Virus record (IMG/VR): IMGVR_UViG_3300042937_000802
Span: 1 to 64,000 of that record
Strand: one strand, 5' to 3'
DNA length: 64,000 nucleotides
Source: a virus
The stretch's first letter is position 1. Each line of letters opens with the position of its first letter. Positions 1,051 to 7,988 of the stretch are shown here, one piece after another. The notes beneath the pieces are model-generated. The model did not search any database. It saw only the letters and a program-made list of their open reading frames with translations, and was not told where the DNA came from. The position numbers and the translations under genes were made by a program.

Positions 1051-1129
1051 CGTCCCATAACGTCCTGTCCGGCTACTATCAGGGCGTCCAATAAAATCAG
1101 AAAGCCCGTCTGGGCTTTCTGATAGTAGC
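1051..1129. repeat. Intergenic IR/palindrome element copy 1
   Basis: CGTCCCATAACG ... GCTACTATCA ... TCAGAAAGCCC-GTCT-GGGCTTTCTGA-TAGTAGC. Confidence 0.9.
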
Positions 1130-1134
1130 TCACA

Positions 1135-1180
1135 GATGCTGCCTCTCCCCCCGCAAGGGGGGAGAGGCATGAACAGCATC
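1135..1180 (-). terminator. Strong hairpin after 72-aa gene
   Basis: GCCTCTCCCCCC-GCAA-GGGGGGAGAGGC stem. Confidence 0.6.
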
Positions 1181-1397
1181 AGACGGTGACGGGAACAATC
1201 AGGTTCGTCAGGTCGTAGACGCCCTTGTTGTCCGTCTTGCAGTCCTTCAGCACCCAAGTCGGAATGCCCTTCATGTTGATGGACTGTGCGACTTCAAGGA
1301 GTCCGATCTTGTTGAACAGGTAGTTGCCCGTGTTGGCATTCTCTGCGTACTGCTTGGCTGCGGAGATGAAACGATTGCGCTTGTTGAGGTATGGCAT
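1179..1397 (-). CDS. Small protein resembling the CobS N-terminal domain
   Basis: 72-aa ORF directly after cobS; PTWVLKDCKTDNKGVYDL resembles PAWLVQPKSRRAGRGKYII in cobS N-terminus. Confidence 0.7.
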   Translation of the reverse strand: MPYLNKRNRFISAAKQYAENANTGNYLFNKIGLLEVAQSINMKGIPTWVLKDCKTDNKGVYDLTNLIVPVTV

Positions 1398-1419
1398 TTT
1401 CTTTTTCTTTCTTTCTTGG

Positions 1420-2766
1420 TTAGGCGTTCATAGCGTACTGGGTGTCGGTGTCGGGGTTGGACAACTTATCCAACTGTGCTTTCAATTCTGCGATCTTCTT
1501 CTGCTCTGCGGTCAGAGCGTTGACGGGGTTGCTCACCGGGGCATCCTTCATCCCCTCCGGGACAGGGAGGATCGTGGGGTCGATCTTCGTGTAGAGGTTG
1601 AAGAACGCCTCCTTCGTGGACGCATCGAACCGCGTCAGCGTCAACTTGATGGCCTTCTCCTTGTCGCCAAAGATGGCGAACGCCTTGCACACTTCCTCCA
1701 AGCGGCGGGTGGTGATGATGTCATCCAGTCCACCCTCCTTGAAGCCCATGCGGATCGTTTCCGCCCACTTCGTGAGGTACTGGGCGAACTCCTTGTCCTC
1801 CTTGCCGTATGCCTTCATCTTGCGGATGATGATACGCGCTTCGATGGTGCGGTCTGCGTAGTCCTGCTCAAACCAGTAGGAGAAGCGGTCAAGGAACGCC
1901 TCGTTCATGCAGCGCGTACCAACGAACCGATCAGACTCACCCTTGCCCTTGGTGTTGGCAGTCGCCACCACATTGAAGCCCACGGCAGGCTTGATGAACA
2001 TACCGATCTTCTTGATGTAGATGCCCTTGCCCTCAAGCACGGGCTGAAGGCACATCATGCGCTCCGTTCCGAGGTCGATCTCGTCAAGGAGGAGGATGGA
2101 GCCACGCTGCATGGCCTGAACCACGCCACCGAACACGAACTTCGTTTCGCCGTTGACGAGGCGGAAGCCACCGATGAGGTCATCCTCGTCCGTTTCGGCG
2201 GTGATGTTGACGCGGATGCACTCGCGGCCCGTGGAGGCGCAGATCTGCTCCACCATCGTGGTCTTGCCGTTGCCGGACATACCCGTGATGTAGATGGGAG
2301 CGAACTGCTTGGATGCGAGGATGGTGGAGATGTCATCGTGGTGACCCCACGGAACGAAAGTCTCGTTCTTGGCGGGGACGAGCGAAACATCGGAGGACGG
2401 CATGACGAGGTTGTAGGTGTTGCTGTTCATGTTGCTGATTGTATCACATTCGGGGGAGTGTGTGGAGAATTGATCTGAAGATTCGGAAAGATTTTCGTCG
2501 GAGGTATCGGACTCTGCGGGAGTGTAGTCAAGCACGACCATCTCCGGGATGATGTACTTACCACGACCTGCACGGCGGCTCTTGGGCTGCACCAGCCAAG
2601 CCGGCAGAACGGAGTAGGATTCCTGACCGTACTCCATGCAGACGGCAAGTGCATCCAAGCACTGGTTGCGAGTGTAGACGGCTTCCCCGATGGTCTGCGG
2701 AACGCCGTGCATAGCGGCGAGGGTTTCTAGGAACTTCTTCTTGCGGTTGTCGATGTTGCTGTTCAT
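1420..2766 (-). CDS. cobS: CobS/MoxR-like AAA+ ATPase
   Basis: Walker A GMSGNGKT, Walker B LLLDEID, ATANTKGKG, NEAFLDRF; start reassigned to ATG 2766 (MNSNIDN) 6 nt after TATACT. Confidence 0.92.
   Translation of the reverse strand: MNSNIDNRKKKFLETLAAMHGVPQTIGEAVYTRNQCLDALAVCMEYGQESYSVLPAWLVQPKSRRAGRGKYIIPEMVVLDYTPAESDTSDENLSESSDQFSTHSPECDTISNMNSNTYNLVMPSSDVSLVPAKNETFVPWGHHDDISTILASKQFAPIYITGMSGNGKTTMVEQICASTGRECIRVNITAETDEDDLIGGFRLVNGETKFVFGGVVQAMQRGSILLLDEIDLGTERMMCLQPVLEGKGIYIKKIGMFIKPAVGFNVVATANTKGKGESDRFVGTRCMNEAFLDRFSYWFEQDYADRTIEARIIIRKMKAYGKEDKEFAQYLTKWAETIRMGFKEGGLDDIITTRRLEEVCKAFAIFGDKEKAIKLTLTRFDASTKEAFFNLYTKIDPTILPVPEGMKDAPVSNPVNALTAEQKKIAELKAQLDKLSNPDTDTQYAMNA
2431..2471 (-). 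promoter_or_regulatory. CACACTCCC-box promoter internal to cobS
   Basis: TTCTCCACACACTCCCCCGAATGTGA-TACAAT-7nt-ATG(2430), in frame with cobS. Confidence 0.75.
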
Positions 2767-2802
2767 ACGAGAAGTATACCACAAGTTTGGGAGTGTGGGA
2801 AA
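2767..2802 (-). promoter_or_regulatory. CACACTCCC-box leaderless promoter
   Basis: TTCCCACACTCCCAAACTTGTGG-TATACT-6nt-ATG. Confidence 0.85.
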
Positions 2803-2835
2803 TATTGTGGGCAAATATTTCCAATATTTTTTTCA

Positions 2836-2921
2836 GGTCCGATAACCGGTCCGGTCCACTACTATCATAATAATATACACAATCCTCAGAAATTGCTTAA
2901 AGGGCAATTTCTGATAGTAGC
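2836..2921. repeat. Intergenic IR/palindrome element copy 2
   Basis: GGTCCGATAACC ... CTACTATCA ... TCAGAAATTGC-N7-GCAATTTCTGA-TAGTAGC. Confidence 0.85.
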
Positions 2922-2930
2922 TCAAAGAAA

Positions 2931-6273: not shown

Positions 6274-6354
6274 GGTGGTATTGTATCAGGTCGGGGGGAG
6301 TGTGTGTAGAAAGGGGGAGAAAGATTTCCAGTTTCTTTCTCCCCCCACAGGGGC

Positions 6355-6753
6355 TCACATGCGGATCTTCGATGCCTGTTCCTTCACGATTTCGTAGGCG
6401 AAGCGAACGGCCTCCTCGTCCAAGTAATCGAAGAAGATCTTCGGGCAAGCGATGGAGAGCGGGACGATGTTGTACTGCGCGTCCTCTCCGGCCATGATGG
6501 CGTTCCCGTAGATCGGGCGACCTGCGAGACAGGAGGCGCGGACGTTGAGCGGGGCGCCCTTGAGCATGGCCTCCTCGTCAACCCACAGGCAGGAGTTGTA
6601 GTTCTCGTTCAGGGGCACACGCGCCACGATGTCGCAACCGCCACCGATGACGCCGTACATGGACGACAGGCTGTCGGTGATTTCGATGACGGAGACCTTG
6701 GTGGCGGTGTTGACGAGGATGAGAGCGGCGGGGATGTTGGTGGTGTTCTTCAT
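6355..6753 (-). CDS. DUF3846-like protein
   Basis: LWVDEEAMLKGAPLNVRAS...IYGNAIM motif; leaderless promoter 6754-6793. Confidence 0.75.
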   Translation of the reverse strand: MKNTTNIPAALILVNTATKVSVIEITDSLSSMYGVIGGGCDIVARVPLNENYNSCLWVDEEAMLKGAPLNVRASCLAGRPIYGNAIMAGEDAQYNIVPLSIACPKIFFDYLDEEAVRFAYEIVKEQASKIRM

Positions 6754-6819
6754 ACGAAGATTGTATCACACGAAGGGGAGTGTGTGTAGAATTGAGAACG
6801 AATTATTTCATTTCTTTGG

Positions 6820-6908
6820 CGTCCCATAACGTCCAGGGCCGGCGGGCTACTATCACGCGCCGTCCTATAATAAAATCAAGCAGGTCCTAGGACCTGCTTG
6901 ATAGTAGC
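6820..6908. repeat. Intergenic IR/palindrome element copy 4
   Basis: CGTCCCATAACG ... GCTACTATCA ... perfect palindrome TCAAGCAGGTCCTAGGACCTGCTTGA-TAGTAGC. Confidence 0.9.
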
Positions 6909-7049
6909 TCAGCCCTCGCTGGCCACTTCCCTTTTCCCCTCCCTCCGCGCCTTCCGGGGGTCTCGGCTCTTCTTGCCCCAGGTCTTGGGGCGCAGCCGGA
7001 TTCCTTCGCGGAAAGCATCGTGGACGAATTTGCCGGGTCGGTGGTTCAT
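6909..7049 (-). CDS. Small basic protein (46 aa), not in ORF track
   Basis: MNHRPGKFVHDAFREGIRLRPKTWGKKSRDPRKARREGKREVASEG*, ATGA-coupled to upstream gene. Confidence 0.6.
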   Translation of the reverse strand: MNHRPGKFVHDAFREGIRLRPKTWGKKSRDPRKARREGKREVASEG

Positions 7050-7276
7050 TGTCGTAGCGTCCTTTCTATCTTGGCCTGCAGGCTCTGTAGCGTCCTGCGT
7101 TCATCGTTGGCCTCGGTGCGGAAGTCATCATGCCGCTCTTCCGTGTAGGTGTTGATTTCTAGCATCGTGTCCACGAGGCCCCGAAACACGAGGCGATCTA
7201 GGACAATCAATTCTTTCCTTGTCAAGCCCACCCCGATGGTCGGGGTGGGCTTGATCCGTTCGATGGTCGGGATCAT
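7046..7276 (-). CDS. Hypothetical protein
   Basis: MIPTIERIKPT..., ATGA overlap with 7273 stop. Confidence 0.65.
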   Translation of the reverse strand: MIPTIERIKPTPTIGVGLTRKELIVLDRLVFRGLVDTMLEINTYTEERHDDFRTEANDERRTLQSLQAKIERTLRQ

Positions 7277-7839
7277 TCGGCCTTCCCCCGGACGATGATC
7301 CACAGCAGGGCTTGCAGCGTGGCGGGGGCCATGCAGACGGCACCCGTTCCGGCGATGGTGCGGATCGCGTCCGCAATGGCCCGGTACTCGGTCGCGTTGG
7401 GCGCATCCTTGCCCAGTCCCGCAGCGCGGCACATCCACACATCCACCACCACCGCGTCACGGTCCCCGGCGATGGCACGGGCAAACGCGTTCGTCTTGGG
7501 GCCGCGCAGACCGTTGAAGCCCTGCCGGACGCAGCGGTCGGCAGCGTCCACGTGGGAGCGGAGGCCCTTCGGCGTGATGCCCTGCGCGTACTGGTACGCC
7601 TTCGCCTTATTGTGCGCCCAAGTGACGCGGGGCGAGAACGCGGAGACAACGGACGCGGACACTTCCATGCTCCACTCGGGGCGCAGGACGCGCAGCGACT
7701 CCGCGAAGTCTCCGGCCTCAACGTACCACTTCTGCGCGGCAGCGTAGTCGAAGAGGGTAGCCGATGCGAGGTGGCTGATGAACGACTCGATGGCGCGGGT
7801 GCGGACGGTTTCGTAGCGGTTGGTGCGGGTGGTGCTCAT
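7273..7839 (-). CDS. HhH-GPD glycosylase-like phage protein (DUF7178-like)
   Basis: QKWY...VVSAFSPRVTW...GPKTNAFARAIAGD...VVVDVWM; start MSTTRTN at leaderless promoter. Confidence 0.6.
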   Translation of the reverse strand: MSTTRTNRYETVRTRAIESFISHLASATLFDYAAAQKWYVEAGDFAESLRVLRPEWSMEVSASVVSAFSPRVTWAHNKAKAYQYAQGITPKGLRSHVDAADRCVRQGFNGLRGPKTNAFARAIAGDRDAVVVDVWMCRAAGLGKDAPNATEYRAIADAIRTIAGTGAVCMAPATLQALLWIIVRGKAE

Positions 7840-7906
7840 GCGTACATTGTAACACATGATGGGGAGTGTGTGTAGAATTGGTGGCGAGAAATTATAAATT
7901 CTTTCG

Positions 7907-7988
7907 CGTCCTATAACGCATCCAGGGCCGGCTACTATCAGGCGCAGACCATCCAATCCTCACAAATGCGCGCATTTGTGATAGTAGC
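7907..7988. repeat. Intergenic IR/palindrome element copy 5
   Basis: CGTCCTATAACG ... GCTACTATCA ... perfect palindrome TCACAAATGCGCGCATTTGTGA-TAGTAGC. Confidence 0.9.

Follow-up and report, generated by a model that had tools for sequence, protein, structure and literature searches.

A putative PeSL-type terminator-promoter boundary element with operator-like sites in the GC-rich island of uncultured T4-like phages

The window analyzed here (64,000 nt; positions 1 to 64,000 of the 91.5-kb IMG/VR virus record IMGVR_UViG_3300042937_000802) belongs to a T4-like phage, with gp23, gp20, TerL and UvsW on the same record; T4-like cyanophages have the closest counterparts of both its major capsid protein and its CobS. 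The genome has a GC content of 33% and carries a GC-rich island with a GC3 of 0.80, compared to 0.23 in the rest of the genome. The early genes in this island are leaderless, and the island, with its small variable genes, represents a hyperplastic region whose gene content differs between relatives. An assembly chimera as the source of the GC jump at ~9300 was ruled out, since independent contigs carry the island internally (i.e., within AT-rich DNA in the relatives G004 and G006), on the same contig as gp23, and since the island CobS is cyanophage-like, as is the capsid protein. Searches of the island ORFs against Pfam identified only WYL_2 (twice), DUF7178, DUF3846 and AAA_5; an HTH or other DNA-binding domain was not among the matches, and PDB sequence searches and an Atlas search gave nothing informative on these ORFs. 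No close DNA relatives were found among deposited phages.

Five copies of an intergenic element were found in the island (Table 1). On the minus strand, 5/5 copies read GCTACTATCA, hairpin, spacer, TGATAGTAG(C/T) and GTTATNGGAC, which confirms the common architecture, positions and order described in an earlier note on this DNA. The paired-arm pattern had no match in 100 dinucleotide-preserving shuffles, and the box was found 6 times compared to 0.46 expected occurrences; all element motifs lie within bases 1-9300 of the record. The inner stems have no mismatch and are 9-11 bp long, counting the common TCA/TGA, with loops of 3-7 nt. As had been noticed before, full palindromes account for two of them and a third has a centre of 1 nt, and a T-run follows three of the five hairpins; 3/5 copies also score as terminators. 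The leaderless promoter expected downstream of the box was present in 5/5 copies, with the ATG exactly 6 nt past the -10 hexamer. The near-constant span of the outer inverted repeat (57-64 bp) did not hold up as a constraint; the span is 56-63 bp here and the arm-to-arm distance in relatives is 26-75 bp.

Table 1. Coordinates of the element copies and associated features in the window.
Feature	Position	Strand	Details
Copy 1 clamped hairpin module	7931..7988	-	left arm 7979-7988; palindrome 7960-7981, 9-bp stem, no T-run; spacer 7941-7959; right arm 7931-7940; covariance-model match, 41.8 bits
Copy 1 promoter module	7837..7930	-	GGAY motifs; box 7908-7917; A/T tract; -35 TACACA 7869-7874; -10 7846-7851; leaderless ATG 7837-7839, DUF7178 gene
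Separate intrinsic terminator	8006..8024	-	just 5' of copy 1, within a conserved 3'-UTR-like block (~7990-8070)
Copy 2 clamped hairpin module	6846..6908	-	left arm 6899-6908, adjoining a stop codon; full palindrome 6876-6901 with T-run, predicted terminator; right arm 6846-6855
Copy 2 promoter module	6751..6845	-	box 6821-6830; A/T tract; -35 6783-6788; -10 6760-6765; ATG 6751-6753, DUF3846 gene
Copy 3 clamped hairpin module	5442..5498	-	left arm 5489-5498; hairpin 5467-5491 with T-run, predicted terminator; right arm 5442-5451
Copy 3 promoter module	5338..5441	-	five GGAY motifs; box 5410-5419; -35 5370-5375; -10 5347-5352; ATG 5338-5340
Copy 4 clamped hairpin module	2858..2921	-	left arm 2912-2921; hairpin 2886-2914 without T-run; right arm 2858-2867, last base T giving G.T with the left arm
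Copy 4 promoter module	2764..2857	-	box 2837-2846; A tract; -35 2796-2801; -10 2773-2778; ATG 2764-2766, N-terminally extended CobS
Separate intrinsic terminator	2931..2954	-	10 nt 5' of copy 4
Copy 5 clamped hairpin module	1072..1129	-	left arm 1120-1129; hairpin 1097-1122 with T-run, predicted terminator; right arm 1072-1081
Copy 5 promoter module	980..1071	-	GGAC motifs; box 1052-1061; -35 1012-1017; -10 989-994; ATG 980-982, CobT-like gene, phrog_459
Sixth box, isolated (GTTATCGGAC)	9245..9254	+	opposite orientation; motif-rich non-coding edge of the GC-rich island

Further analysis showed that the element family comprises at least 61 distinct copies, spread over 21 or more contigs of uncultured T4-like phages, all within GC-rich islands and all in the same orientation as the genes. 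A known RNA family was rejected as the identity of the element, as just four tRNAs passed the Rfam search and no family covered any element even at E up to 10. A scan of bacterial genomes gave matches at at least 120 loci; the hairpin architecture was absent among the matches listed, which are consistent with chance and do not point to a bacterial origin or a REP-like spread. A MITE was also rejected, given that there are no target duplications and that the inner sequences are unrelated.

Across the family, the inner helix is 99.7% paired, with just 2 G.U cells in ~740 and double changes at 9 of 11 pairs. A T-run follows the hairpin in 37 of 60 copies; of the 23 without one, 15 are preceded by a separate terminator 7-22 nt away. 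T-run and separate terminator are thus complementary (T-run only, both, terminator only and neither: 31/6/15/8; Fisher p = 2e-4), and 21/60 copies lie directly behind a separate T-run terminator. Where a T-run follows, the free-sequence hairpin is, as predicted from these features, the intrinsic terminator of the upstream unit. The switchable terminator-antiterminator suggested in the earlier note had to be abandoned; the 3' arm lies beyond the T-run and would therefore be transcribed only after the termination decision, a geometry that rules out a cis antitermination switch, and the location of about a quarter of the copies behind a separate terminator also speaks against it.

The promoters of the family are found 51-140 nt past the right arm and are of the sigma-70 type (TTGACN or TACACA, 17 nt, TAnnnT, frequently with an extended TG). 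Almost every copy has its ATG 6 nt past the -10, too close for a Shine-Dalgarno sequence to fit in between. The CACACTCCCC promoter box was rejected as a part of the element, as it represents a lineage-specific -35/spacer form and relatives carry TTGACA. Among 34 boxed promoters, which represent only six downstream-gene families, the end of the TTAYNGGAC box is located 46-50 or 55-58 nt upstream of the -10 hexamer in 34/34 cases, with none at 51-54; both distance classes were found inside 3 of the 6 families, and a further promoter has a box distance of 37 nt. These fixed classes indicate that the box is a helically phased DNA site of the promoter. It is often arranged as GGAC-N6-GGAC with an A/T-rich centre, at positions ~-54, -63 or -73 (i.e., helical-turn steps), and is followed by an A-then-T tract. 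In G006, boxes occur in either orientation between divergent promoters, which also indicates that the box is read as DNA. The "oriented box" is thus a promoter-phased DNA site and not, as had been proposed, a part of the hairpin element; in a more distant relative, it occurs without arms. Moreover, GGAY repeats, an array that includes the 3' arm, are strongly strand biased (212 sense versus 13 antisense, ~16:1), with spacing peaks at 5, 9-10 and 19. Each copy can be divided into three separable modules, namely the clamped hairpin, the GGAY array and the box with its A/T tract, promoter and ATG. Phased upstream direct-repeat sites are familiar from class I CRP-type positions, from lambda CII (TTGC-N6-TTGC) and from OmpR/PhoB-type tandem sites. 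The GGAC-N6-GGAC box at helical-turn steps next to a UP-like tract resembles these and provides a lead, even though its motif is not known to match a consensus of such sites.

The closest known counterparts are the promoter-early stem-loop (PeSL) cassettes of T4-type phages (Arbiol et al. 2010, PMC2839356; Comeau et al. 2014, PMC4122927). Both are intergenic, lie in hyperplastic regions of T4-like phages and combine a stem-loop terminator with an A/T-rich tract and a strong early promoter of the sigma-70-like kind. Both also recur between small variable genes, and the element, like PeSLs, may be linked to indels among relatives. The cassette-boundary interpretation and PeSL analogy of the earlier note stand. 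By comparison, the invariant 9-10 bp inverted repeat around stem-loop and spacer, the 16:1 strand-biased GGAY array, the TTAYNGGAC box helically phased to the promoter and the location in an island with a GC3 of 0.80 in a genome with 0.23 are particular to this element. The 3' end of a PeSL also carries a Shine-Dalgarno sequence and start codon, whereas the cassettes described here are leaderless and have no Shine-Dalgarno sequence at their 3' end. Cassette recombination, shown by experiment for PeSLs, is for this element at most suggested by sequence comparison.

Taking into consideration these similarities, we lean towards the interpretation of the element as a terminator-promoter boundary of the PeSL type that also carries operator-like sites for some factor; new compared to known PeSLs are the added conserved motifs, which look like docking sites of a regulator. 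Each copy would represent the boundary of two early transcription units in the hyperplastic island. The upstream unit would be ended by the hairpin with its T-run or otherwise, usually, by the separate terminator, and transcription of the next unit is expected to start at its ATG. The arm motif (CTACTATCA/TGATAGTAG), like the box and the GGAY/GGACRGGAY repeats, could be a DNA site for at least one sequence-specific factor of phage or host, which may control this subset of early promoters, either by activation or by later shut-off via the adjacent UP-like tract. The inverted arms, which clamp the terminator palindrome, could insulate the control region from incoming transcription. Like PeSLs, the cassettes probably also act as joints in gene gain and loss. 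Some observations count against operator sites; the promoters appear strong without any factor, Pfam gave no HTH among the island ORFs and the 34 boxed promoters come from only six downstream-gene families. To our knowledge, T4-like phages outside the enterobacterial group have no MotA/AsiA, and little is known about how their early genes are timed. In this clade, a compact and testable promoter architecture is available (i.e., phased box, oriented short repeats and clamped terminator), present several times per genome and conserved over many uncultured phages; the reader of the motifs, once found, would be a handle on early-gene control and accessory-gene swapping in this group.

The arms also count against the operator-site interpretation, as canonical elements always carry them as an inverted pair, 26-75 bp apart, with no helical phasing to each other or to the promoter, and with one covarying position (last base of the left arm and first base of the right arm: 56 A-T, 6 C-G, 4 unpaired). 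These observations are explained by base pairing no less well than by two duplex sites, and a dimer bridging both arms on the duplex is disfavoured by the absence of helical periodicity. A less probable explanation of the element is a fail-safe or retroregulatory role of the arms in RNA. In lambda sib/tI and the T7 early RNase III sites, a terminator hairpin lies within a longer stem whose 3' strand is past the termination point. RNAs stopped at the inner terminator would likewise lack the 3' arm, and read-through RNA would fold into the complete stem, in which the outer 9-10 bp stack on the inner 9-13 bp, and become a substrate of RNase III from the host or of some other nuclease; cleavage would yield the same protected 3' end and separate the cistrons. 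All copies have the geometry in which the extended duplex forms only in read-through RNA and, as in lambda and T7, the sequence is common to the sites of one phage. The strict orientation to transcription, the outer stem in the minimum-energy fold of 3/5 copies and the excess of G.U (14) over A.C (8) at the outermost arm pair are also consistent with this role; moreover, an internal AUG on read-through RNA, with neither a 5' end nor a Shine-Dalgarno sequence, would make read-through useless to the next gene. However, 6/7 outer pairs are fixed, across lineages, while the inner stem varies freely, unlike in a purely structural signal, and single-arm mutants (CAAC or GTTG) show no compensating change. 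The 21 copies directly behind a separate terminator would rarely be transcribed, and in a dedicated non-coding locus of the relatives, which also holds box arrays of 4-9 copies, the arm motif forms direct tandems, which cannot pair. The phage records contain no RNase III gene, although the host enzyme would do, and cleavage is only predicted here, in contrast to lambda and T7. An inward extension of the outer helix was rejected, given that the first base of the hairpin and the base preceding the right arm show no covariation; at the two flanking positions furthest out, pairing occurs only about half of the time. The juxtaposed arms resemble the tetO core (CTATCA.TGATAG), which we take as a lead only.

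A more far-reaching proposal, which we consider rather improbable, is that arm, box and GGACRGGAY constitute the recognition code of a dedicated, undescribed phage regulatory system. Its candidate readers would be the Sm-like WYL_2 proteins or the small zinc-ribbon or basic proteins of the island, which would read the extruded or single-stranded clamped hairpin and couple the termination of one early unit to the control of the next promoter. The system's own multi-site non-coding locus could serve as a sink, loading site or origin, and cassette exchange would be directed without a classical recombinase.

It is improbable that the element is primarily a site-specific or homology-driven recombination joint, in which arms and promoter are the crossover sites that move promoter-gene cassettes, either as mini-circles, as for PeSLs, whose recombination has been demonstrated by experiment, or, more exotically, as folded sites like integron attC. 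With regard to changes of gene content at the element, synteny does break at elements; element pairs are homologous upstream only in 59 cases, downstream only in 106 and on both sides in 100, homology begins at the left arm in L021 and, between G001 and L053, stops at 2925, next to where copy 4 has its left arm, and a replacement begins at 6815, just past the box. However, equally precise gene indels and breaks were also found at element-free boundaries (7050/7270, 6282, 8070 and 2433-2448), so that an enrichment at the element is only a possibility. Neither a tyrosine recombinase (PF00589) nor a Y1 HUH transposase (PF01797) was matched in five records. Moreover, the arms are just 9-10 bp long, target-site duplications are absent and the inner palindromes are unlike between copies, which argues against recent copying. 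The resemblance to attC includes conserved inverted cores flanking a centre variable in length and sequence, a location at the 3' ends of cassette genes and a co-oriented array; by comparison, no integrase was found, the arms CTACTATCA/TGATAGTAG differ from the RYYYAAC/GTTRRRY cores, each cassette has its own promoter and the perfect stems contain no extrahelical bases. Nor does the element match REP/BIME with RAYT, which combine a Y1 HUH transposase with a GTAG 5' of the palindrome and are found in many chromosomal copies.

A DNA cruciform or single-strand hairpin signal, extruded by supercoiling from the strong downstream promoter and recognized by a structure-specific protein in replication priming, in cleavage of the endonuclease VII type or in a pause of injection, is very improbable; the perfect Watson-Crick and in part loop-free inner stems, the A/T-rich flanks and the retention of the palindrome even where a separate terminator acts would fit, but plain terminators elsewhere in the island have equally perfect stems, so that perfection cannot discriminate, the stems are short for extrusion and no evidence links the element with an origin or the ends of the genome. 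As a separate observation on the island, its tRNAs are exactly those for the codons needed by the late genes.

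The minus strand of 900-8200 was read and bears out the five-copy architecture described in the earlier note, with all five copies (copies 1 to 5, at 7907-7988, 6820-6908, 5409-5498, 2836-2921 and 1051-1129) matching that description. On this strand, each copy carries, in order, a left arm GCTACTATCA, a perfect hairpin that starts with TCA and ends with TGA, a spacer and a right arm TGATAGTAG(C/T); beyond the right arm, a GGAC-rich stretch whose end is GTTATNGGAC leads into an A/T tract, and then come the promoter and the ATG. The paired-arm pattern has five matches in the sequence and none in 100 shuffles, and the single arms and the box (TTAYNGGAC), counted alone, are likewise far above chance expectation. 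Every one of these motifs is confined to the first 9.3 kb of the 91.5-kb record, its GC-rich early-gene island; the window covers bases 1-64000 of this record. An exact-arm search of IMG/VR returned 47 loci, and the distinct elements numbered 61, in 21 contigs, once the hairpin was required; additional copies are present in contigs found via the DUF7178 protein, whose gene lies downstream of copy 1. A covariance model built from nine element copies gave 76 matches at E up to 1e-3, 68 of them distinct. No Rfam family matches the element, and the arm loci in bacterial genomes, at least 120, are chance-like, with the hairpin present in none of the matches listed.

We lean towards reading the element as a terminator-promoter boundary whose operator-like DNA sites would serve a putative factor. 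Except for a Shine-Dalgarno sequence, which is missing, it has the structure that defines the promoter-early stem-loop (PeSL) cassettes of T4-type phages (Arbiol et al. 2010, PMC2839356; Comeau et al. 2014, PMC4122927); beyond that structure it has a clamp, oriented repeats and a phased box.

Of 60 copies, 37 have a T-run after the hairpin; in 15 of the other 23, a separate terminator, likewise a hairpin plus T-run, ends 7-22 nt upstream of the left arm. That the two are complementary (31/6/15/8, p = 2e-4) indicates, at the level of sequence, that termination is required at the boundary and that the clamped palindrome is retained even where the terminator lies elsewhere. Of the window copies, 2, 3 and 5 are predicted to be self-terminating, and separate terminators precede copies 1 and 4 (see table). 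The earlier note had also proposed a switchable terminator-antiterminator; acting in cis, such a switch is excluded by the geometry, because the 3' arm is transcribed only after the termination decision. Immediately upstream of copy 1, a block of ~80 nt (7990-8070, minus strand) with a CGAGGTGGTGCTCG hairpin and a terminator is conserved in more than 15 contigs irrespective of the preceding gene, and in L076, a contig of a relative, it has its own TTGACT/TATAAT promoter; this block may encode a small RNA, either independent or derived from a 3' UTR.

Coordinates of the separate terminators in the window and of the motif locus in relatives
Feature	Location	Coordinates	Strand	Basis
Separate terminator	window, copy 1	8006-8024	-	sequence prediction
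Separate terminator	window, copy 4	2931-2954	-	sequence prediction
Motif locus	G004 (L070)	15200-15800	-	sequence comparison
Motif locus	G001	5450-6050		sequence comparison
Motif locus	G006	93300-94000		sequence comparison

The inner helix (11 modelled pairs, the shared TCA/TGA included) is 99.7% paired, with double changes at nine pairs and G.U in just two cells; such pairing and double changes indicate that the structure of the inner hairpin is retained and its sequence free. In the covariance-model alignment, six of the seven outer pairs are invariant. The final base of the left arm changes from A to C in some copies, with compensation of its inner-hairpin partner in 9 of 9, and it covaries with the first base of the right arm (56 A-T, 6 C-G, 3 C/T and 1 A/G; Fisher p = 6e-6, which ignores relatedness between copies); the C/G form is the rule in one sub-lineage of contigs (L084, L090, L091 and L085). 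The arms lie 37-75 bp apart in a continuous distribution, or 26-30 bp apart in compact spacer-less copies, and this distance has no 10-11 bp periodicity across the family. A role of the arms at the RNA level, of the sib or RNase III type, would fit this single covarying position, the lack of helical phasing and the constant pairing of the arms as inverted repeats, but their sequence is otherwise invariant and some copies lie behind separate terminators, and we regard such a role as rather unlikely. The compact copies were seen in the relative G004 (22749-22783, 24261-24299 and 25076-25114) and in the contigs L082 and L088, in either orientation relative to the next promoter; they carry one arm change without compensation, either CAAC in the left arm or GTTG in the right, and no double complementary arm mutant was seen among them.

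The 3' arm sits within an array of GGAY motifs, and the arm variant GGATAGTAG itself starts with GGAT. In 64 elements, the 4,891 nt from hairpins to A/T tracts contain 212 GGAY motifs against 13 complements, with spacing peaks at 5, 9-10 and 19 nt. A sigma-70-type promoter lies 51-140 nt downstream of the right arm, and in nearly all copies the ATG lies 6 nt past the -10 hexamer, a distance that predicts leaderless mRNAs. The CACACTCCCC motif of the window promoters is lineage-specific, with TTGACA in its place in the orthologous promoters of relatives. The distance from right arm to box is variable (6-75 nt); that from the end of the box to the -10 hexamer is 46-50 or 55-58 nt in all 34 boxed promoters and never 51-54 nt. 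These promoters represent six downstream-gene families, three of which include both distance classes, and orthologous promoters have therefore shifted by one full helical turn; a further conserved promoter has a box distance of 37 nt. The box is often the latter half of GGAC-N6-GGAC and adjoins an A-then-T tract resembling an UP element. In the arm-bearing lineage, 38 promoters have arm and box, 24 the arm only and 1 the box only. Since boxes in G006, a relative without canonical clamped hairpins, lie between divergent promoters and also occur inverted, their placement implies that the box there must be read as DNA.

Divergent leaderless promoters also stand back to back at 8700-8815 of the window (promoter box at 8723 on the minus strand and 8778 on the plus strand), neither with a clamped hairpin or TTAYNGGAC box; they drive a WYL_2 gene and a Cys-rich 85-aa ORF. 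Between 10000 and 64000, several genes have a T4-type late-promoter motif (TATAAATA) just ~5-20 nt ahead of the start codon, and the Shine-Dalgarno sequences there are weak. Late mRNAs, too, may therefore have little or no leader.

At the distal end of the island, relatives have a conserved non-coding stretch of 600-700 bp (motif locus in the table), a position that falls beyond the start of the record and outside the window. Within it lie a promoter, 4-9 boxes, GGACRGGAT repeats, an A/T-rich tract and the arm motif, single or directly repeated. The locus matches no Rfam family and may serve as an origin, as an operator array or, as RNA, as a protein sponge. Mainly because direct tandems cannot pair, we read the arm as a probable recognition sequence, more than a half-stem, and the same unpaired tandems count against an RNA-level role. 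The locus also contains a long hairpin with a stem built of box sequence. Weak leads as candidate readers of the motifs come from proteins that arm-bearing genomes encode and G006 does not: the two Sm-like WYL_2 proteins, encoded at 8348-8701 and 5509-5805, a basic protein of 46 aa from 6909-7049, and the product of the Cys-rich, zinc-ribbon-like ORF at 8815-9072. Pfam gave no HTH hit for the island.

Between contigs, many element pairs are homologous on one flank only. Homology of L021 with the window begins at the left arm of copy 1, the DNA upstream being unrelated and AT-rich; at copy 2, L038 shares the element and the gene upstream of it and has a different downstream gene; and homology with G001 and L053 ends at 2925, beside copy 4. 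Breaks also occur elsewhere. One involves a 76-aa ORF (7046-7276, minus strand) whose start and stop overlap its neighbours: G004, L012, L017 and L019 lack precisely this ORF, L048 and L021 have it, and neither end of this clean one-gene indel bears a repeat element. Other synteny breaks coincide with plain gene boundaries. Given these breaks without elements, and as a search of five records yielded neither a recombinase nor a HUH transposase, PeSL-like gene shuffling by the element is only plausible, and a recombination site is an improbable reading of it. Cruciform or ssDNA signalling, also raised earlier, is very improbable.

GC content is ~55% in the first 9.3 kb and ~33% in the rest. The AT-rich part carries T4-type gp23, gp20, large terminase and UvsW genes; its capsid protein is ~54% identical to T4-like cyanophage capsid proteins, and CobS, encoded in the GC-rich part downstream of copy 4, reaches the same ~54% with its counterparts in these phages. 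The island is real, since the element and gp23 occur together on three long contigs from other metagenomes and AT-rich DNA lies on either side of the GC-rich island in G004 and G006; together with the cyanophage-like CobS and capsid proteins, these observations rule out an assembly chimera. Another GC-rich stretch lies at 84-90 kb of the record.

Island genes have a GC3 of 0.80 and leave ATA, AGA and AAA nearly unused (1-7%); core genes (9400-64000) have a GC3 of 0.23 and use these codons heavily (32-69%). The four island tRNAs (3291-4174) decode exactly ATA, AGA, TTG and AAA. Together, the two codon regimes and the tRNA specificities suggest host-adapted early genes followed by tRNA supply for AT-rich middle and late genes. 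CobS has a 112-aa N-terminal extension (2431-2766, minus strand), and its frame holds a complete promoter (2438-2468, minus strand) and an in-frame ATG at 2430; homology with several relatives ends at 2433-2448, within CobS, and the extension is therefore a separable module. The island edge at 9100-9400 is non-coding and GGGNCCC-rich, with repeated A/T-rich words and an inverted box at 9245-9254, and a similar stretch adjoins the DUF7178 gene in two contigs of relatives (L079 and L083).
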